NCBI GenBank assembly: GCA_903902515.1
Contig: CAIUVD010000091.1
Location: 8,199 to 72,198 of the forward strand
Source of the DNA: an uncultured Planctomycetota bacterium
Lineage (GTDB): Bacteria > Planctomycetota > UBA11346
DNA: 64,000 bases
Direction of reading: 5' to 3'
Part shown: positions 1,346 to 40,484 of the stretch, in pieces
Position numbering within the stretch: the first letter of the stretch is position 1
Layout: every line of letters starts with the position of its first letter
The notes under the pieces: generated by a model
The model's input: only the letters and a program-made list of their open reading frames with translations
Told to the model about the DNA's origin: nothing
Database searches by the model: none
Program-made: the position numbers and the translations under genes

Positions 1346-2226
1346 TGCGGGTGATGGTTTCGGTGGCGCTCGTTTTGAGGTACTTCCAGCCGTCCGAGGT
1401 CATCATGGCCCTTGAACCCAAGGCGATCAGCACGCCAGCGCTCACCGTTGGACTTGCCGATATAATACCGAGGCCTTCCGCAGTTAGAGTGCTCGCGATA
1501 CAGGCAGAGCCCTGATTCAGCGAGGGCACTGGCATAGCCCTCGACGGACAGCTGGGTCGGAGGAAGTCCATCGAGGATAACCCGAGCATCCCGAGCGACT
1601 GTGTCTTTAACGGTCACCCGATCCCGTTGATGAGCCACATACCCCGTCCGGTCGGTAGGCCGAATACGAGGGCGAGATGGCTGGTGTTCACGATCTGGCA
1701 ATGACGCCAAGCCGAACCTACGTTCGAGATCTCGATCGATGCCGGGGGCGGCACGATGGCTGTGCTTGGCATGGTAGACATAGCCATCTCTGTTAACCCG
1801 AATGGCCACCAGGTGGTCGTGTGGATTGGCCTTCCCGTCTGCCGCCCGATGAGCGACCACCACAAAATCCCATTGGTCGACATCTGGCTTGGGGAAGGGA
1901 TCCAAGCCTCGCTTAACTCGTTGTTTGTTGAGCTTGGCCCAGTCGTCCTCCAGGTGGCTGCGCATGACCTCGCGGGCGACCTCGCCGCGGCGCTCTGCCG
2001 TCAGGCCCGCGTCCATGTCAGCCTGCTGGTAACTGATCGACCAATGCAGCACTGGATGGGAGAGGTGGGCAGCTGCGGCACGACTGGCAGCGAACTCCCG
2101 AGCCAATTCCCGGGCACTCCTCCCGCTCATCGTGCCGCCCACAATTTCCGGGGCCTGATCCTTCCTAAAACAGTAGTCCAGGAGCTGCCTAACACTCTTC
2201 CCGCCTCGATGCTGCTTGGTGATCAT
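1333..2226 (-). CDS. Relaxase / mobilization nuclease (MobA/VirD2-type, Relaxase family)
   Basis: N-term MITKQHRGGKSVRQLLDYCFRK is a typical relaxase start. NPHDHLVAIRVNRDG fits the relaxase HxDxxxHxH-type metal-binding motif. Start chosen at MITKQ (2226), overlapping the mobC stop; the longer ORF in the track (to 2238) is probably an over-extension. Confidence 0.7.
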   Translation of the reverse strand: MITKQHRGGKSVRQLLDYCFRKDQAPEIVGGTMSGRSARELAREFAASRAAAAHLSHPVLHWSISYQQADMDAGLTAERRGEVAREVMRSHLEDDWAKLNKQRVKRGLDPFPKPDVDQWDFVVVAHRAADGKANPHDHLVAIRVNRDGYVYHAKHSHRAAPGIDRDLERRFGLASLPDREHQPSRPRIRPTDRTGYVAHQRDRVTVKDTVARDARVILDGLPPTQLSVEGYASALAESGLCLYREHSNCGRPRYYIGKSNGERWRADRLGFKGHDDLGRLEVPQNERHRNHHPHWDR

Positions 2227-2669
2227 CAGACATCCCAAGATCCCGGTTTTTCTGAAGGATGGGGCTTGGGTTGCAAGACCGCCTCGACCTGCGCAGGGAT
2301 GCCGGCGAATCGGTCCGTGAAGGGTTGGCCAGGATCCTGGCCGACCAGTCTTCGGCGCAGTTGGATCACAGCCCGGGAGGCCTCGCGCACGGTCTCCCAG
2401 TCGGCTTCGTGACCCTGTCCCCCGTTGATGCGCTTGAGGGCCTGATTGAGGTTCGCCCCGATCCCCCTGAGCTGGGCGTTCGTGTCCTGGTCAATCCGGG
2501 CCGGGGGCGGGCTGACCTGGACCTCGAACACAACATCGCGAATCCAGGCACCGAGCGTGGCGTAGCCCGCTATAGCAGCCTTGGTATTAAGGTCGGCCAG
2601 CTCAGCGTCATTGACACCGAAGCCGGCGGTTTTCTTGCGGGGATTTCGGTCACGAACGATACGGGGCAT
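2226..2669 (-). CDS. mobC: MobC-family relaxosome accessory protein
   Basis: 147 aa, LRGIGANLNQALKRIN is the conserved MobC motif; lies immediately upstream of the relaxase gene on the same strand. Confidence 0.7.
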   Translation of the reverse strand: MPRIVRDRNPRKKTAGFGVNDAELADLNTKAAIAGYATLGAWIRDVVFEVQVSPPPARIDQDTNAQLRGIGANLNQALKRINGGQGHEADWETVREASRAVIQLRRRLVGQDPGQPFTDRFAGIPAQVEAVLQPKPHPSEKPGSWDV

Positions 2670-2840
2670 CTGTCAAAGGCCTGCAATGAACCAGCGCTGG
2701 TACTGCCACCGCTGGTTGGGGGTGATCGAGCCGGGGAATTTGCTCAACCAGGGGGATGCAAGGGGCGGCGAAGCCCCCTTGCCAAGCGCACCGACAAGCA
2801 GAGCCGTTAGGCTTAAGCTTGAGCGGTGCACAGCTTGCTC

Positions 2841-2997
2841 GCCTTCACGACGACGCCTGACCACTCGACCGGTCTGGACGCGCGGTGGCGTAGCGACGGC
2901 AGCCCACGACAGGCGCCTTTGGCGCATGCCGTGGGCTGCCGAGCGGAGACACCGCTGCGGACAGGACGGGAGAGTGGTCAGGCGTCGTCGTGAAGGC
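2841..2997. repeat. Large nested palindrome: perfect 26-bp arms (2841-2866 / 2972-2997) enclosing a perfect 12-bp inverted repeat (2897-2908 / 2930-2941) on the same centre (~2919). Candidate oriT or cruciform
   Basis: GCCTTCACGACGACGCCTGACCACTC and its exact reverse complement GAGTGGTCAGGCGTCGTCGTGAAGGC; inner CGGCAGCCCACG / CGTGGGCTGCCG around GGCGCCTTTGGCGC; directly upstream of mobC. Confidence 0.4.
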
Positions 2998-3037
2998 AGC
3001 CTACCCGTTGCCGTTGCCTGGAGCTTGAGCCGAACGC

Positions 3038-3385
3038 TCATGGCGCTTGATCATCGAGCTGAGGTGCGCGTTGCGGTGACGGCAACTGCGGCCCATCGTC
3101 CAATCCGGTGATGACAACAGGCTCGTCATCACCGGATTTTGCTGGACGAATTCTCGTGGATATCCACCGAGCAACGTAAGCCAGGGACTCAGCCTGCGAA
3201 ACGGCCTCAGCGAGGATCTCATCGTGCTGCTGCCGTCGCCGCTGTCCCAATGACTGCTGCGCACTGGCGAGATCTTTGGCCAGACCTGCAGACAGGGTGT
3301 TGATCAGGCCGAGCGCTACGCCGATGGTTGCGCGAGTGCCAGGGATGTCAGGAGCCAGAACGGCGCGAAGGATGGACGGTCGCAT
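3038..3385 (-). CDS. Hypothetical protein downstream of the integrase (possible recombination directionality or regulatory factor)
   Basis: 115-aa ORF, island-like codon usage (lower GC3 than chromosomal genes), no recognisable motif. Confidence 0.3.
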   Translation of the reverse strand: MRPSILRAVLAPDIPGTRATIGVALGLINTLSAGLAKDLASAQQSLGQRRRQQHDEILAEAVSQAESLAYVARWISTRIRPAKSGDDEPVVITGLDDGPQLPSPQRAPQLDDQAP

Positions 3386-18738: not shown

Positions 18739-18815
18739 TGGAGCGGGCGAAGAGACTCGAACTCTCGACCTACTGCATGGCAAGCAGTCGCTCTAGCCAA
18801 CTGAGCTACGCCCGC
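18739..18815 (-). tRNA. tRNA-Gly (anticodon GCC)
   Basis: Minus-strand read GCGGGCG-TA-GCTC-AGTTGGCTA-GAGC-G-ACTGC-TTGCCAT-GCAGT-AGGTC-GAGAG-TTCGAGT-CTCTT-CGCCCGC-T-CCA folds into a canonical cloverleaf; anticodon loop TTGCCAT. Confidence 0.9.
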
Positions 18816-33113: not shown

Positions 33114-33416
33114 ATGGTCGATATCCACATCTCCGGCGTCCACTACCAGGTCAGTGACAAGGTGAAATCCTATGTCACGGACAAGATGACTTCACTCTCG
33201 AAGTTCCACGCCGGGTTGAATAAAGTGCATGTCACGATCCACCCCCAAGAAAAACACGGCTATCGTGTTGATGTGGACATGCACCTGCCCCACGGCAAGG
33301 ATGTCATTGCTCATGACAGTGAAGACACGGTGTACTCGGCGATCGATGTCGTCCACGACAAGGCCGCAGCCCAGCTGCGGAAGATCCACGAGAAGGAGGC
33401 CCACCATAAGCGCTAG
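33114..33416 (+). CDS. hpf: Ribosome hibernation promoting factor (RaiA/HPF, short form)
   Basis: 100 aa MVDIHISGVHYQVSDKVKSYVTDKM... Confidence 0.8.
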   Translation: MVDIHISGVHYQVSDKVKSYVTDKMTSLSKFHAGLNKVHVTIHPQEKHGYRVDVDMHLPHGKDVIAHDSEDTVYSAIDVVHDKAAAQLRKIHEKEAHHKR

Positions 33417-35078: not shown

Positions 35079-35129
35079 GCCCTGCCAAGCGCAGGAGCAG
35101 CCCAGATTCGCCCCTGCGCTTGGCAGGGC
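35079..35129 (+). repeat. Perfect 17-bp inverted repeat GCCCTGCCAAGCGCAGG / CCTGCGCTTGGCAGGGC (hairpin without U-tract) after the methyltransferase gene
   Basis: Exact reverse-complement arms, 17-nt loop. Confidence 0.5.
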
Positions 35130-35296
35130 AATGTCTGGTAAATCAGCTGATTTATTGCTAATTATCCCGTATTTCTTTGTCGAAATTCCCATGGCATGCC
35201 CATAGCTCCGGCACTGGCGTGGCCGGCACTTCCCCCTCGGGGGGGCCAAGGCCCATTCCGTCGCCGTGACGCTTCAGCCCCTGTGAAAGGGCCCCT

Positions 35297-35797
35297 ATGG
35301 ACATTCGTTATCTCTACCTCCCCCTCGCCGTCGCCCTGGCGGCCAACATCGGCTGCACCTCGACGACACCTCCGGCGACTCCCGCCACTCCGGTGTCGTC
35401 ATCCCCGGTGTCGACGCCGGGGACCACCACCCAGCACATCGAGGACATCAAGCAGGACGCCAAGGCCCTCCACCAAGACCTCGACGAGTACACGTTCACC
35501 CAAAAGACCGAATACACGGCCCGCATGAAAACCCAGCTCGATGAGGTTCAGGCCGAACTGGACCAGATGAACGCCAAGATCGAAGCCGCCAACGAGGCGA
35601 CCCGGTCCGAATACCGGCCCAAGGTCCAGGCCCTCCGTGACCAGCTGGCGAAACTCCACCTCCAGCTCGACAAGGCCCGGGAATCCGACGCCTCGACCTG
35701 GAATGACGTCAAGAAGGGCATGCGCAGTGGGTATCAGGACCTCAAGGAAGGCGTGAAAACCTCCCGCCAGTGGCTCAGCGATAAAATCGCCCCGTGA
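35297..35797 (+). CDS. Lipoprotein with Pro/Thr/Ser linker and coiled-coil region
   Basis: Lipobox NIGC; TTPPATPATPVSSSPVSTPGTTT linker; heptad-rich remainder. Confidence 0.5.
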   Translation: MDIRYLYLPLAVALAANIGCTSTTPPATPATPVSSSPVSTPGTTTQHIEDIKQDAKALHQDLDEYTFTQKTEYTARMKTQLDEVQAELDQMNAKIEAANEATRSEYRPKVQALRDQLAKLHLQLDKARESDASTWNDVKKGMRSGYQDLKEGVKTSRQWLSDKIAP

Positions 35798-36288
35798 ACC
35801 GACGACCCACCACCAACCCCATGGCTGAGGATTTCATGAAACTTGCCCCTTCCAGCACCGCCACCACCAAGGTGATGCCCGTCACCTCCAACGGTGCCTC
35901 CACCACCCAGGTGTCACCGATCTCGCCGACGGCGACCGCCACGCAGACCCTGCAGACCCAGCCAACGCCGGAAAACCACCGCCACCTGATCCCGATCCCC
36001 TTTGAGTTTCGGTATTCGACGGCGACCACCGTTGCCATTGCCGGGGACTTCAACGGGTGGAACCCCACGGCCTCAATGATGCACCAAACCGGCGGTGGAC
36101 GCTGGTCGACCAGCATCCCCCTGCCCCATGGGCGCCACGAATACCGGATGGTGGTCGATGGCGTGTGGATGCCGGACCCCCTGGCCATGGCCGCCGTCGC
36201 CAATCCCTATGGCGGCAGCAATTCCGTGGTCCTGGTGCCACCGCTAGACCACACCAACGCCACCACTCCCACCACCCGCACCGCCTGA
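35794..36288 (+). CDS. CBM48 / glycogen-binding (AMPK-beta-like, isoamylase N-terminal) domain protein
   Basis: PFEFRYSTATTVAIAGDFNGWNP...GRHEYRMVVDGVWMPDP is the CBM48/E-set signature. Confidence 0.5.
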   Translation: MNRRPTTNPMAEDFMKLAPSSTATTKVMPVTSNGASTTQVSPISPTATATQTLQTQPTPENHRHLIPIPFEFRYSTATTVAIAGDFNGWNPTASMMHQTGGGRWSTSIPLPHGRHEYRMVVDGVWMPDPLAMAAVANPYGGSNSVVLVPPLDHTNATTPTTRTA

Positions 36289-36302
36289 ACGGACCACCCA
36301 CC

Positions 36303-36740
36303 ATGACGACCCCCACCCGCCTCCATCTCCTGTCGACCGTCGGCTGCGCCCTGGGCCTGCTGGCGGCCACCCTGGCCCCCGGCTGGAGCGAGGATGCCCA
36401 AGCAAAACCCGTGGACATTCCGGCCCCCTGCAAAGACATGATGTCGAAACGCCAGGCCATGCAGGAAGACGCCAAGAAACAGGACACCATCCTGAGTGAC
36501 CATCTGGCCAAGCACCGGGCCTTGGCGCCGGAACTGAAACCCGCGCATCTGGATGAAATGGTCCTCTTGATGGCCGAACAGCGGATCGCCCGCCACGGTA
36601 TGCAAGAAATCCTGCACACCGGGATGATGGCCCATATGGCCAGCCATCGGGGCATGGGGGCCAACTGCCCGATGATGGATCCGCCGATGGCGCCCGGCCA
36701 CCGGGATGATGTCGGAAGACAGGGCGCCCAAAAGCCATGA
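36303..36740 (+). CDS. Secreted protein with Met/His-rich C-terminus (possible periplasmic Cu/metal-binding protein)
   Basis: Signal peptide MTTPTRLHLLSTVGCALGLLAA; C-terminal HTGMMAHMASHRGMGANCPMMDPPMAPGH. Confidence 0.4.
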   Translation: MTTPTRLHLLSTVGCALGLLAATLAPGWSEDAQAKPVDIPAPCKDMMSKRQAMQEDAKKQDTILSDHLAKHRALAPELKPAHLDEMVLLMAEQRIARHGMQEILHTGMMAHMASHRGMGANCPMMDPPMAPGHRDDVGRQGAQKP

Positions 36741-37423
36741 TCGTCGGGCCGTCGCCAGCCCGTGCACTGGTCGTGGTGCTGGTGGCGGTCAGCGGGGCCC
36801 TGCCGGCAGCGGACATGGCCTTCACGGATCTGCGGCTGAGCGTCGGATTCCTCTCTCCGCGCACCGAGGGCTCCTCCTCGACCACCGTCGAGGGGCCCGG
36901 CCTGTCAGGCGCCTTCCCGGCCATCGACGACGATGAGAACGCCACCGCCACCCAGCGCGGTCAGTTGCAGGTGGTGTTCGGCCGCCTGGGGCTCGGTGGC
37001 GGCTTGGTGACCGGCGTCGGGGTGGCGGTTAACCGCGCGACGTGGCATGATGGCCTGCGAAAAATCCAGGTCACGGCCCCGGTCATGAATGTTCTGGCGG
37101 GTTACGGCTACGCTTTCAACACGCGCTGGCACGCCGAACTGACCCCCATGGTCGGTTTTGGTCGGGCATCGTACACCATCACCCAGGACGATGGCCGTCG
37201 GTCCTCCGCGACCTGGGAGCCCTATGTCGAGTTCGGCGGTCGGCTGGCGACCTTCGTCCAGGTCAACAAGACGACCATGCTCGGCCTAGAAATTCCCTAC
37301 CTGATCTCCAGATTTCGTTCGGAATTTGAGACGATGACCACCGATGGCCGGACGGTGACCGTCCGGGAAACCCATCGCCAGCAGGGCCTGGGGCTGCTGG
37401 TATCTGTGGGCGTCCGCTGGTGA
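36737..37423 (+). CDS. Putative outer-membrane beta-barrel protein (loosely similar to the 27372-28073 protein)
   Basis: Signal peptide, alternating beta-strand pattern, terminal W. Confidence 0.4.
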   Translation: MIVGPSPARALVVVLVAVSGALPAADMAFTDLRLSVGFLSPRTEGSSSTTVEGPGLSGAFPAIDDDENATATQRGQLQVVFGRLGLGGGLVTGVGVAVNRATWHDGLRKIQVTAPVMNVLAGYGYAFNTRWHAELTPMVGFGRASYTITQDDGRRSSATWEPYVEFGGRLATFVQVNKTTMLGLEIPYLISRFRSEFETMTTDGRTVTVRETHRQQGLGLLVSVGVRW

Positions 37424-37438: not shown

Positions 37439-38833
37439 CTAAAGCCCCAGGCGGCGGCGTTTGCGCCACAGGGTCGAAGATTCGATGCCGAGGACGGCGG
37501 CCGCTTCCTCGAAGGTCCCGGTCATGGCCAAGACCTGACGGATGTGCTCGTCCTCGACATCGGACAGGGAATGGTCGCCGCCGACCCGGGCATGTACGAC
37601 GGCATCCCCATGGACGCGCAAACTGAAAGCCTCAGGACCGACCACATGGGTCGGACAGAGGACCGTGATCCGCTCGATTTCGTTGCGGAGTTCCCGAACA
37701 TTTCCTGGCCAACCGTGGCCTAACATTTTTTGACAGGCGGCCGGCGAGAACTCCATGGTCGGCCGATGGGCCGCCTTGCAGAACGTCTCCATGAAGGTGT
37801 TGGCGAGATCGAGCAAATCATTGCTCCGGTCCCGCAACGTCGGCAAGGTGATTTCGATGACATTGAGCCGATACAGCAGGTCCTCGCGGAACTTCCCCTC
37901 GCGGACCAGGGCCTCCAGGTCCCGGTTGGTGGCGGCGATGATCCGTACATCCGCCAGCCGAGTCCGGGGATCACCGACCCGTTCATAGGTCTTCTCTTGG
38001 AGAAAACGCAGCAACTTGGCCTGGATGGCGGGCGACAAGTCGCCCAATTCATCGAGGAACAACGAGCCACCATCCGCGACCTCGACCTTGCCCTGTTGAT
38101 CACGCACCGCCCCGGTGAAAGAGCCTTTGACGTGACCGAACAATTCGCTGACCAGCAGTTCCTCGGTGAGCGTTGGGCAGTTGACGGTGACGAAGGGTTC
38201 CTTGGCCCGGGAACCCAATCGGTGCAGGGCCTGGGCCAGGGCCCCCTTGCCGGTTCCGCTTTCGCCTCGCAGCAGCACGGGGATATCGAACAGAGCAGCC
38301 CGGCGGATGATGTTCAGGGCCAGCAGCATGGCGGGCGAGCGGGTGGCAAAAACACCGCCCTCTTCCTGAGGCTCCGCCGCCACCGTGGGGGCCGTCACCC
38401 GGGGCAGCTCACGGATGCGGCGGACCTCGTGGAGGTGTTCCACCAGGGTCTGCACGTGATGCTCCAGGATCGGCTGCTGGATGAACGTGCAGGCCTCGAT
38501 GGTCGCCGGCCGCCGCGCGGGCTCGTTCTTCCCGGCCGGAGTCACTAGGATAATGCTGACCGCACGGTTGGCGGTCACCAGCCGGGGGATCAGGTCCGAA
38601 TCCCCATGGGTGTGGTCGAGAAACGCCAGGTCAAAGCCCTCGGGCGGCGTCTCCTTCGGATCGTGGCTGGAGGACGCCTCCGTCACCTGGCAGCCGTGGC
38701 GCCGCAGGTAGCCGCACAGGCTGGCGCGTTGCTCGGGGCAGCGTTTGACCACCAGGGCCTGGAAAAGCCGACGCGGCGGAACCTTGGGGGCAACCGTGCT
38801 CTGCGAGGTTGAGGAAGCGGAAGATGGGCTCAT
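37439..38833 (-). CDS. Sigma-54-dependent Fis-family response regulator (NtrC-like): receiver + AAA+ sigma54-activator + HTH
   Basis: GESGTGKGALAQALH Walker A, GSFTGAV (GAFTGA sigma54-contact motif), C-terminal HTH AAAVLGIESSTLWRK. Confidence 0.85.
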   Translation of the reverse strand: MSPSSASSTSQSTVAPKVPPRRLFQALVVKRCPEQRASLCGYLRRHGCQVTEASSSHDPKETPPEGFDLAFLDHTHGDSDLIPRLVTANRAVSIILVTPAGKNEPARRPATIEACTFIQQPILEHHVQTLVEHLHEVRRIRELPRVTAPTVAAEPQEEGGVFATRSPAMLLALNIIRRAALFDIPVLLRGESGTGKGALAQALHRLGSRAKEPFVTVNCPTLTEELLVSELFGHVKGSFTGAVRDQQGKVEVADGGSLFLDELGDLSPAIQAKLLRFLQEKTYERVGDPRTRLADVRIIAATNRDLEALVREGKFREDLLYRLNVIEITLPTLRDRSNDLLDLANTFMETFCKAAHRPTMEFSPAACQKMLGHGWPGNVRELRNEIERITVLCPTHVVGPEAFSLRVHGDAVVHARVGGDHSLSDVEDEHIRQVLAMTGTFEEAAAVLGIESSTLWRKRRRLGL

Positions 38834-38934
38834 ACAATAGTCATAGGCATCCTGATTCCATGCTCATGCGCTTCGCAGCCCTGAGCCCCTAGCGCCCCTG
38901 CAGCATGCAGGGTGAAGGACCTGACCGTCGGCGC

Positions 38935-38951
38935 CTGTGGCACTCACTTAC
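38935..38951 (+). promoter_or_regulatory. Candidate sigma54 (-24/-12) promoter TGGCAC-tcac-TTACC, divergent from the activator gene and upstream of the DUF883 gene
   Basis: Matches TGGCAC-N4/5-TTGCW with one mismatch in the -12 element. Confidence 0.3.
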
Positions 38952-39067
38952 CAACGTAAGCTGTGGGATTTCAGAAGCCAACAGCGATTTGACATTTCTC
39001 GGCACGGAATCCGCGATGGTAACTCGCCGGGGCATCACCCGGATCACCGAAGACCAAGGACCATCCC

Positions 39068-39298
39068 ATGCACGAAAACTTCCTGAAATCCGATCCGACC
39101 GCCGAAGACACGGGGATCAAATCCTGCTGCGCGAGCATTCCCGCCGCCGTCCAGGACGCCAAGGAACGAATCACCGATGCGGGCCGCCAGGCCCTGGTGA
39201 CCGTCCGTAAATACCCGGTGGAAAGCGTCGCCCTCGCCATCGGCGTCGGAGCCCTGGTGTGGTGGATGGTCAGTCGCCTCCAGAAAGACGAGAAGTGA
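39068..39298 (+). CDS. DUF883 (ElaB/YqjD-like) C-tail-anchored stress protein
   Basis: 76 aa, C-terminal TM VALAIGVGALVWWMVSRL preceded by RKYPVES. Confidence 0.55.
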   Translation: MHENFLKSDPTAEDTGIKSCCASIPAAVQDAKERITDAGRQALVTVRKYPVESVALAIGVGALVWWMVSRLQKDEK

Positions 39299-39312
39299 CC
39301 CACGATCCTACG

Positions 39313-39783
39313 ATGCGGCCCGCCCCCGGGGGCCCCATCGAGGATCGGCGCCAACGCGCCATCGCCCACCTCAACCGGTTCCTGGCGGATGAGCAGGCGG
39401 CGGTCGAAAGTTATGCCCGGACCCACCCGTGCGCAGGCCATGATGCCTCACCCGACTGGACCATCTGCCTGATGTCCCACCGTCGGCAGGCGACCCTCAT
39501 CGCCCAACGCATCAAGCACCTCGGCGGTCATCCGACCACCGCGTGTGAACCGTGGCCCGCCATCACCCAGAGCCTTGATCAGCCCTCGGGATCCATTGCC
39601 ACCCGCAAGGCACTCCGGGCCGGCGAGGACCGGAGTTTGGCGGGATACCTGAGTCGGATGCCCGACCTGGATGACGACTCTCGCCTGCTGGTTGAGCAGG
39701 AGCTGCGGCCAGCCCAGTTTCGGACCCACGAGGCCGCACGACGGATCTGCGCCGCGGAATGGACGCAAAAGCATTCCCCATGA
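39313..39783 (+). CDS. Ferritin-like four-helix-bundle protein (DUF2383/PA2169-like)
   Basis: AIAHLNRFLADEQAAVESYAR helix; about 156 aa. Confidence 0.45.
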   Translation: MRPAPGGPIEDRRQRAIAHLNRFLADEQAAVESYARTHPCAGHDASPDWTICLMSHRRQATLIAQRIKHLGGHPTTACEPWPAITQSLDQPSGSIATRKALRAGEDRSLAGYLSRMPDLDDDSRLLVEQELRPAQFRTHEAARRICAAEWTQKHSP

Positions 39784-39938
39784 TCAAAAATAAGGCTCTT
39801 CTGGTGCTGCTGGCCGTGGCCGGAGTCGTTGCCATCGGGTTCTTGATCTGGGTGACCCTGCGCAACGGCAGCCCACCGCCAGGCATCGACGATCCCCGGA
39901 AGGAACTCAACGAATTCCTTCCGCCCCGCGTCCCCTGA
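39780..39938 (+). CDS. Small single-TM protein
   Basis: 52 aa [27 protein letters not shown]. Confidence 0.3.
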
Positions 39939-39967
39939 CGCCCCCTCATTTCCAACGGGACACTCCC

Positions 39968-40141
39968 ATGCTCTTCTGGTCCGCCGCCTTCCTCATCATT
40001 GCCGTGATCGCCGGCATCTTCGGCTTCGGAGGAATCGCCGAAGGCGCCACCTCGATCGCCAAGGTCCTGTTCTTCCTGTTCCTGGTGCTGTTCGTGCTTT
40101 CGGCCCTGACCGGCCTCCTCCGTCGCCGGAGGGACACCTGA
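39968..40141 (+). CDS. DUF1328 small membrane protein
   Basis: [47 protein letters not shown] is the DUF1328 signature. Confidence 0.55.
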
Positions 40142-40142
40142 C

Positions 40143-40394
40143 ATGGAAACTCCCACGACGCCCCAGGGCCCGCCAACGCATACCGAACCGGGCCTGATCG
40201 CCCTGGCCATCGCCGGCCTGGGTGCCTTCGCCGCCAAGGCCATCACGGAAGGCCTCGGCCGCTTGTTCACCGACAAAGAGGCGGTTGGCAAGGACCGCCA
40301 CCAGGGCCCCCTGTTCCTGACCCTGCTCATGGCCCTATTCGCCCTGGTGGTCGTCATGCTGGTCACCGCTCGCAAGCCCGAGCCCCCGACCTGA
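40143..40394 (+). CDS. Small two-TM membrane protein
   Basis: 83 aa, ATG 2 nt after the DUF1328 stop. Confidence 0.35.
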   Translation: METPTTPQGPPTHTEPGLIALAIAGLGAFAAKAITEGLGRLFTDKEAVGKDRHQGPLFLTLLMALFALVVVMLVTARKPEPPT

Positions 40395-40484
40395 ACACCC
40401 CCGTCCATCGTCCGCGTGTGGAACGACCTTCGCTAGACTGGGGTCGAATCCGGTCATCCTGACCCTTCCCCCGGACGAAACGGC

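Follow-up and report, generated by a model that had tools for sequence, protein, structure and literature searches.

A putative sigma-54 and enhancer-binding-protein stress module in an uncultured Planctomycetota lineage

Canonical sigma-54 promoters show a GG-N10-GC spacing. At glnAp2, NtrC uses two dyad sites placed about three helical turns apart and ~100-140 nt upstream of such an element and acts by looping, while PspF is a phosphorylation-free activator encoded divergently from the small membrane stress operon pspABCDE, with binding sites in the intergenic region. In the envelope stress system ZraSR-zraP a two-component sigma-54 activator is likewise divergent from a small stress-protein gene, and AlgB, of the KinB-AlgB system of Pseudomonas aeruginosa, is reported to act without phosphorylation. 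DUF4142, BON, GSP26-like, DUF1328 and similar families are general stress regulon members in other phyla. Here we describe a locus that recalls these systems, located on a 64-kb stretch of contig CAIUVD010000091.1 from an uncultured Planctomycetota bacterium (64,000 nt in all, hereafter the window), in which a sigma-54 activator gene is divergent from five small genes that we call g1 to g5. From gene order, a candidate promoter and upstream palindromes shared with relatives, we consider it likely that the locus is a sigma-54/enhancer-binding-protein stress module of this lineage.

For the phylum, rpoN has been noted in R. baltica (RB6491; PMC2754498), and a 2025 in-silico survey predicted sigma-54 promoters before chaperone (DnaJ, GrpE), UspA and MscS genes in Planctomycetia (PMC12316311). 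The organisation of general stress responses in Planctomycetota is poorly known, and that survey gave bulk promoter predictions only. In the searchable literature we found no account of DUF883-like, DUF2383 or DUF1328 genes under sigma-54 control. A first-pass annotation of this DNA, made from the sequence alone, had called such control an unusual wiring; the survey's predictions before other stress genes temper that judgement. The DUF883-like, DUF2383 and DUF1328 families go unmentioned in the survey's main text.

A candidate promoter and paired sites ahead of the small-gene cluster

The activator gene (37439-38833, minus strand; 464 amino acids) had been described as encoding an NtrC-family protein and as divergent from five small plus-strand genes, and open reading frames (ORFs) and Pfam matches confirmed this layout. 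The intergenic region between it and g1 (39068-39298, plus strand; 76 amino acids) is 234 nt long. Within this region we identified a candidate sigma-54 promoter, cGGCACGgaatccGCg, at 39000-39015 on the plus strand (GG at 39001-02, GC at 39013-14), with the correct GG-N10-GC spacing. The g1 ATG follows its GC by 54 nt, the predicted transcription start is at ~39026, and the element belongs to a 57-nt block unchanged in a close relative's locus, L086 (96% identical overall, with the same gene order).

To obtain orthologous loci, we looked up homologues of the activator by exact protein match. In L086, L089, L092/L093, L094/L095 and L096, with activator identities of 60-97%, a g1(-DUF2383-small transmembrane) array is divergent from the activator gene. 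The element before g1 reads CGGCACGGAATCCGCG in the window and L086 (activator 97% identical), CGGCACGGAAACTGCA in L089 (73%), TGGCACGAAGTCTGCA in L092/L093 (64%) and TGGCACGGAATCTGCC in both L094/L095 (61%) and L096 (60%). The orthologous elements follow (T/C)GGCACG-N4-nTGCn in four further lineages and keep their position with respect to the g1 start; those of L089, L092, L094 and L096 are nearer the textbook consensus than the window's own cGGCACGgaatccGCg.

Two palindromes lie upstream of the candidate promoter. The proximal candidate site, CCCTGCAgcaTGCAGGG (38896-38912, core TGCAGCATGCA at 38899-909; centre ~-122), is the only TGCA-N3-TGCA in the 64 kb, stands 97.5 nt away from the GG of the promoter and is unchanged in L086. 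The distal candidate site, TGCGCTTCGCA (38867-38877; centre ~-154 from the predicted start), is of the form TGC-N5-GCA and is separated from the GG by 129.5 nt and from the proximal site by 32 nt. A TGCA-N3-(T/C)GCA palindrome recurs 95.5-98.5 nt upstream of the GG in L089, L092, L094 and L096, and L089 again carries a pair, at 98.5 and 130.5 nt, the distal member being TGCGCAGCGCA. The sequence between palindrome and promoter has diverged among the lineages despite this constant distance; by eye, no convincing match to the IHF consensus was seen between the window's sites and promoter.

In the window, 23 matches to a loose promoter pattern and 19 matches to TGC-N5-GCA were counted, and just 2 promoters had a site 70-135 nt upstream. 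Both of these composite promoters have two sites 32 nt apart, and both occupy intergenic regions around the activator gene. Markov simulations gave a mean of 0.003 double composites per window, with two or more in none of 300 runs. We also counted every three-base palindrome (spacer length 0-9 nt) in the sequence preceding 31 promoter-like matches from six lineages: among the 640 palindrome types TGC-N5-GCA ranked first, being present at 20 of the 31 matches against 2.2 expected (p=4e-16), and the nested GCA-N3-TGC ranked second. A site lay upstream of 15/29 promoter-like matches in loci of the activator's clade and of 7/77 in 80 loci of other activators, and the composite was ~25 times denser in the clade loci. 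The composite of promoter and sites is very unlikely to be a product of chance.

The first-pass annotation had named another -24/-12 element, TGGCAC-N4-TTACC, and had put it at 38935-38951; the sequence, TGGCACTCACTTACC, in fact occupies 38938-38952 on the plus strand, with cGGCACGgaatccGCg ~60 bases downstream. It is highly improbable, in our estimate, that this is a working sigma-54 promoter with a start ~12 nt after 38951. Its TGGCAC hexamer is perfect, correctly oriented, intergenic and itself retained in L086, but at canonical spacing the element reads TGGCAC-N5-TACC, such that GG-N10 is followed by CC (CA in L086) and not by GC. Matches of its class are at chance frequency (28 in the window to TGGCAC-N5-TTGCW with ≤2 mismatches, 29.45 expected). 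Despite the high overall identity of L086, the '-12' half changes there from CACTTACCA to CGCCTCCAA, four substitutions in seven positions, more tightly packed than the changes anywhere else between the two genes. L089 has no counterpart between palindrome and promoter, the position is not fixed in L092, L094 and L096, and the element lies just 35.5 nt from the proximal palindrome, compared with 49.5-130.5 nt for the paired sites found here. We rejected it as a promoter for its missing -12 GC, chance frequency and lack of conservation. A similar sequence, TGGCACGTAATTTACC, occurs at 1971-1986 of L089, also without a -12 GC and in a different intergenic region; the likeness is probably a coincidence.

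Directly after the predicted start, a 5'-terminal leader stem-loop, CCGGGgcatcaCCCGG, is predicted at 39027-39042 (plus strand). A hairpin holds this position in every orthologous g1 leader (L089, L092, L094, L096) with a sequence that differs by lineage, and RNAalifold on the g1 leaders returned 7 pairs, of which 3 show compensatory changes. It may perhaps serve as a 5'-end stabiliser, which would lend some support to the predicted start.

The proposal that the divergent activator drives the cluster through sigma-54 is supported by gene order, by an element conserved in position and by the palindromes, all on comparative grounds, with the promoter moved from the one first named. Under our interpretation, the activator would bind 38867-77 and 38899-909, three helical turns apart, by way of its Fis-type helix-turn-helix (HTH). 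It would then oligomerise and loop to sigma-54 RNA polymerase at cGGCACGgaatccGCg, where ATP hydrolysis by its AAA+ domain would open the promoter. Transcription from ~39026 would yield a transcript with a 42-nt leader, followed by the translationally coupled g1-g3 and probably by g4-g5. By analogy with described systems, this would be an enhancer-dependent sigma-54 promoter of standard mechanism, with sites in tandem. We infer the sigma-54 dependence, start site, operon extent and stress role from sequence comparison.

A second operon, related loci and points against sigma-54 control

The other composite promoter in the window precedes a second putative target operon, u1-u4 (35297-37423, plus strand), which is convergent with the activator gene and lies beyond its 3' end. 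The first gene, u1, encodes an sll1863-family stress lipoprotein (NCBIfam sll1863_fam, 5.2e-16, above cut-off), u2 a CBM48 protein (AMPK1_CBM, 2.4e-12), and u3 and u4 secreted or membrane proteins of 145 and 228 amino acids. In Synechocystis, Sll1863 is a top salt-induced general stress protein (PMC8670252). The sigma-54 promoter-like element TGGCATGcccataGCt, at 35192-35207 on the plus strand, has GG-N10-GC spacing and 2 mismatches to consensus, with a predicted start at ~35218. Its sites, CCTGCCAAGCGCAGG (35081-95) and the reverse complement of that sequence (35113-27), span 35081-35127, are 32 nt apart and lie 105.5 and 73.5 nt from the GG of TGGCATGcccataGCt; the site TGCGCTTGGCA is one base off the distal g1 site TGCGCTTCGCA.

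Orthologues of the u-operon adjoin the activator in L089, L090 and L091. Before the L089 u1 orthologue we found promoter-like TGGCATGTGTGAGGCT, with sites TGCCAATGGCA and TGCGCTTTGCA at 129.5 and 96.5 nt. Based on these sequence features, the same activator most likely also drives u1-u4 from TGGCATGcccataGCt. The unusually AT-rich stretch between the u-operon sites and promoter holds a perfect 14-nt palindrome, AAATCAGCTGATTT, at 35140-35153, which may be a site for a bending protein or a second regulator. Elsewhere in the window, TGCCAAGCGCA at 2780 repeats the sequence of the 35083 site and was set aside as a candidate, with no promoter-like element or obvious gene start after it; just downstream of this copy lies a perfect 24-nt inverted repeat (arms at 2843-2866 and 2972-2995, ~105 nt apart).

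Composite promoters were also present before further genes of the related loci. In L004 they precede a DUF4142 gene and a DUF2383-phospholipase A1 operon; in L092, a unit of a 204-amino-acid protein, DUF1328 and g5, as well as a Pyrid_ox_like (GSP26-type) gene; in L094, a DUF4142 gene; and in L089, a second g1 paralogue with DUF1328 and g5 behind it. The L089 segment concerned (2141-3107) has DUF1328/g5 inverted and detached from g1-g3, and the second g1 paralogue there carries TGCAgagTGCA and a TGGCACGacgagcGCa promoter. Judged from gene order, this arrangement shows apparent modular shuffling of the regulon. In L090 and L091 a BON-domain gene, and not g1, lies just upstream of the activator, and no promoter was visible within these short contigs. 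No clear composite was found upstream in L043 (activator 57%, short contig). Genome and metagenome scans with the activator returned mostly paralogous or distant activators without the cluster, and only L004 was informative.

Several points weigh against sigma-54 control by this activator. cGGCACGgaatccGCg is weaker than its orthologues, with a C at -26, CCGCG in place of TTGCW and 4 mismatches to consensus, and 6 nt upstream of it lies a perfect TTGACA (38989-94), a possible sigma-70 -35 box. A regulator other than the activator could occupy the palindrome. Both patterns, promoter and palindrome, were derived from these very loci, a circularity that the enumeration, the simulation and the control loci reduce and do not remove. 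The u-operon sites, being mutual reverse complements, could alternatively form the terminator hairpin of the upstream gene, although the L089 u1 sites form no mutual hairpin, which argues against a mere terminator. Finally, rpoN was not found beside hpf or among the ORFs at 25.9-33.4 kb, in a search of the window that was not exhaustive.

The TTGACA box bears on the alternative that a sigma-70 or extracytoplasmic-function-type promoter transcribes the cluster, either from this box or from TTGAGG-18-TACAAT at 38809-38838, and that the activator is irrelevant. We regard this as improbable. The -35 hexamer lies inside the block conserved in L086, a plus-strand scan gave one sigma-70-like site, at 38809-38838, and elsewhere members of these families are found in RpoS, SigB or EcfG regulons. 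However, no acceptable -10 follows 16-18 nt after TTGACA, and the hexamer is lost in L089 (where it reads TTGGAA), L092 and L096; we rejected it as a sigma-70 promoter on both counts. The single match of the scan equals a chance expectation of 1.1, and a promoter of this type would leave unexplained the GGCACG-N6-GC elements and the palindromes at fixed distance in five lineages. By eye, no fit to an EcfG-type GGAAC-N16/17-CGTT promoter was seen around 39006 or before dnaJ.

The activator and its degenerate receiver domain

The activator protein matched Sigma54_activat over the full profile (1.3e-63), AAA_lid_14 (1.4e-17) and HTH_8 (1.5e-6, residues 423-461), and its AAA+ domain (PF00158) has the Walker motifs GESGTGKG and DELG. 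The loop that contacts sigma-54 is a GSFTGA variant of GAFTGA (residues 237-242; 38108-38125, minus strand), unchanged across all 10 aligned orthologues; A-to-S variants of this loop are known to be functional. None of the NCBIfam equivalog cut-offs was reached (ntrC, 278 vs 558.6 bits; pspF, 253 vs 443.55; ZraR, 257 vs 760), and many members of the clade carry the automatic JGI name 'NtrC-family response regulator AlgB'.

The N-terminal domain (approximately amino acids 20-140; 38414-38776, minus strand) is a degenerate receiver, as judged by alignment to REC-bearing orthologues. No Pfam REC match was obtained for the activator or for orthologues P0003-P0006 (70-97% identity), whereas orthologues of ≤64% identity have a canonical receiver. 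Relative to the latter, the acidic pair DD is replaced by KR (VVKRC), the conserved K by Q (FIQQP), and 3 amino acids are deleted after the retained Asp (FLDHTHGD). The activator thus lacks the acidic pair and Lys of a phospho-accepting receiver and keeps the phospho-acceptor Asp. In two relatives, a HATPase_c histidine kinase gene lies inside the divergent operon (L092 5614-6675, L094 5714-6388), with a CHASE-GAF kinase gene and two receiver genes nearby. The histidine kinase, CHASE-GAF kinase and receiver genes are all absent from the window's cluster, and the operon kinase is also absent from the L086 and L089 loci. Given the lost receiver residues and the lack of a kinase in the cluster, the domain appears to be a pseudo-receiver outside phosphorylation control: the window's lineage has probably lost the operon kinase together with the receiver's catalytic residues, and activation would be independent of phosphorylation. 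The contrast between receiver plus kinase in the relatives and a degenerate receiver here could show how enhancer-binding proteins escape from phospho-control.

Could a different protein occupy the palindromes? A further alternative holds that the promoter at 39000 is sigma-54-dependent, that another factor acts on TGC-N5-GCA, and that the adjacent activator regulates other genes; this we find unlikely. The degenerate receiver might signal a decaying gene, and planctomycete genomes carry several such activators (Studholme and Dixon, 2004, as relayed in PMC2754498). Against this, the ORF is uninterrupted, with 97% conservation in a relative, no other sigma-54 activator gene is present within the 64 kb, and the activator adjoins composite promoters in every lineage examined. 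The enrichment of the composite over loci of other activators also runs counter to a different factor, as does the HTH region, which is almost invariant across the clade in our alignment and fits a common binding site. From adjacency and the conserved HTH, we infer that the palindrome-binding protein is the adjacent activator.

If so, the distal site, 34-44 nt from the activator start codon, may have a second role, and by analogy with NtrC and PspF its occupation may also repress the activator's own promoter. In L092 (~7904), L094 and L096 (~1575) the other strand of the distal site is sigma-54-promoter-like (TGGCACGCGATGTGCA in L096) and points into the activator gene. The activators of these loci carry the canonical receiver, and the window's distal site has no such promoter reading. 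The sequence likeness suggests positive autoregulation of the activator in those three loci.

Cluster proteins, their neighbours and comparison with known systems

The g1 protein has a transmembrane (TM) segment at residues 50-71 of 76, a C-terminal anchor, and had been annotated as DUF883/ElaB-like. The short length and C-terminal TM segment agree with that label. No Pfam match was found even at E≤10, and the family match is confined to the L096 orthologue, where it is below threshold (DUF883_C, 4.5e-5, 23.4 bits, curated cut-off 27). Its family comprises 29 proteins, with PF19029 on 1/29 and an ElaB/YqjD/DUF883 name from JGI on 1/29, and shares the conserved tail YP..S.A.A.G.G.L.WW..SR. We describe g1 as tail-anchored and DUF883-like; its orthologues head the divergent operon in L089, L092, L094 and L096, and in the window it has a ribosome-binding site, AAGGA, at 39056-39060 (plus strand).

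The second gene, g2 (39295-39783, plus strand; 162 amino acids), overlaps g1 at GTGA and starts at GTG 39295 or ATG 39313. Its soluble, helical product was proposed to be a ferritin-like four-helix bundle. The protein itself has no significant Pfam match (best, Ferritin at 0.077) and the proposal holds by transitive homology: orthologues in L004, L092 and L096 match DUF2383 (PF09537), g2 is 33% identical to the DUF2383-bearing L092 protein (E=1e-19), and the g2-family profile matched bacterioferritin at 7.7e-5. A homologue search returned just 2 proteins, and the AlphaFold2 model is all-helical at low confidence (pLDDT 62; only 3 input sequences). Together these comparisons support g2 as a diverged DUF2383 ferritin-like helical bundle. 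Across the family (39313-39783), E27, H56, E105 and H139 are invariant, one per predicted helix, which suggests a metal site in g2's DUF2383 branch.

The remaining proteins bore out their first description, with g3 and g5 of TM type and g4 a DUF1328 protein. The g3 gene (39780-39938, plus strand; 52 amino acids), overlapped by g2 at ATGA, encodes a single-TM protein with a hydrophobic segment at residues 1-30 and an L089 orthologue 60% identical. The g4 gene (39968-40141, plus strand; 57 amino acids) encodes a DUF1328 membrane protein (Pfam 7.5e-15, 55.4 bits vs cut-off 27; NCBIfam PRK13682, NF010228, 1.3e-21, 76.3 vs cut-off 71), and g5 (40143-40394, plus strand; 83 amino acids) a protein with hydrophobic segments at 16-36 and 53-79 whose orthologue follows DUF1328 in L089 and L092. 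Junctions of 2 nt or less had been reported throughout; this is right for g1/g2, g2/g3 and g4/g5 (a 1-nt gap) and wrong for g3/g4, which are 29 nt apart. The occurrence of DUF1328/g5 as a separate unit in L089 and L092 fits this gap. Since no promoter-like element was found in or before it in the window, g4-g5 would be co-transcribed with g1-g3.

Downstream of g5 lie dnaJ (40485) and grpE (41634). A sequence with GG-N10-GC spacing, TGGAACGACCTTCGCT, is present at 40419-40434, 51 nt ahead of where dnaJ begins; L086 carries the identical sequence, which gives no information, and no TGC-N5-GCA site was found upstream of it. The gene for a ribosome hibernation factor (Ribosomal_S30AE, 4.8e-19) occupies 33114-33416, ~2 kb from the second operon, and the only Rfam match in the window is one tRNA gene (18742-18815, minus strand). 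The closest genome relatives of the window are Planctomycetota metagenome-assembled genomes, and identical contigs are present in soil/peat-type metagenomes in ENA.

What emerges is a concrete, testable putative regulon, made up of an activator clade, pairs of TGC-N5-GCA sites ~32 nt apart, promoters, and small uncharacterised targets of stress type. The corrected promoter coordinates point start mapping and mutagenesis to the right bases. More speculatively, sigma-54 and the 'AlgB-like' activator might form the general-stress master switch of the clade in place of RpoS, SigB or EcfG, with TGC-N5-GCA shared by all members and a kinase-independent activator in the window; we hold this broader idea only tentatively and think it somewhat doubtful. 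If it were true, the regulon would include DUF883-like, DUF2383, DUF1328 and sll1863-family members in the window and DUF4142, GSP26-like and BON-domain members in the relatives.

Among described systems, NtrC at glnAp2 resembles the locus in the paired dyads, their separation, their distance from the promoter and the presumed looping, and the half-site here, TGCA(C), resembles the NtrC site TGCACC-N5-GGTGCA. The locus differs from the NtrC system in the degenerate receiver of its activator, in the lack of a nearby kinase, and in putative targets that are small stress-type genes rather than nitrogen assimilation genes. PspF offers a parallel in its divergent orientation, its freedom from phosphorylation, its small membrane stress operon and its intergenic sites; yet the proteins belong to unrelated families, the cluster showed no PspA-like negative regulator, and PspF lacks the receiver-like N-terminal domain that the activator here keeps. 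The domain order is that of AlgB, although the AlgB label is automatic and the targets here are unrelated to alginate. ZraSR-zraP shares the divergent arrangement, whereas the cluster here has no ZraP-like gene and no kinase; predicted planctomycete activators have been labelled ZraR-like (PMC12316311). The RpoS, SigB and EcfG regulons are similar in cargo, which here and in the relatives comprises ElaB/DUF883-like, DUF1328, BON/OsmY-like, DUF4142, GSP26-like Pyrid_ox_like, DUF2383 and sll1863-family proteins, and differ in their sigma-70-family promoters, where this lineage appears to use -24/-12-type promoters with enhancer sites.

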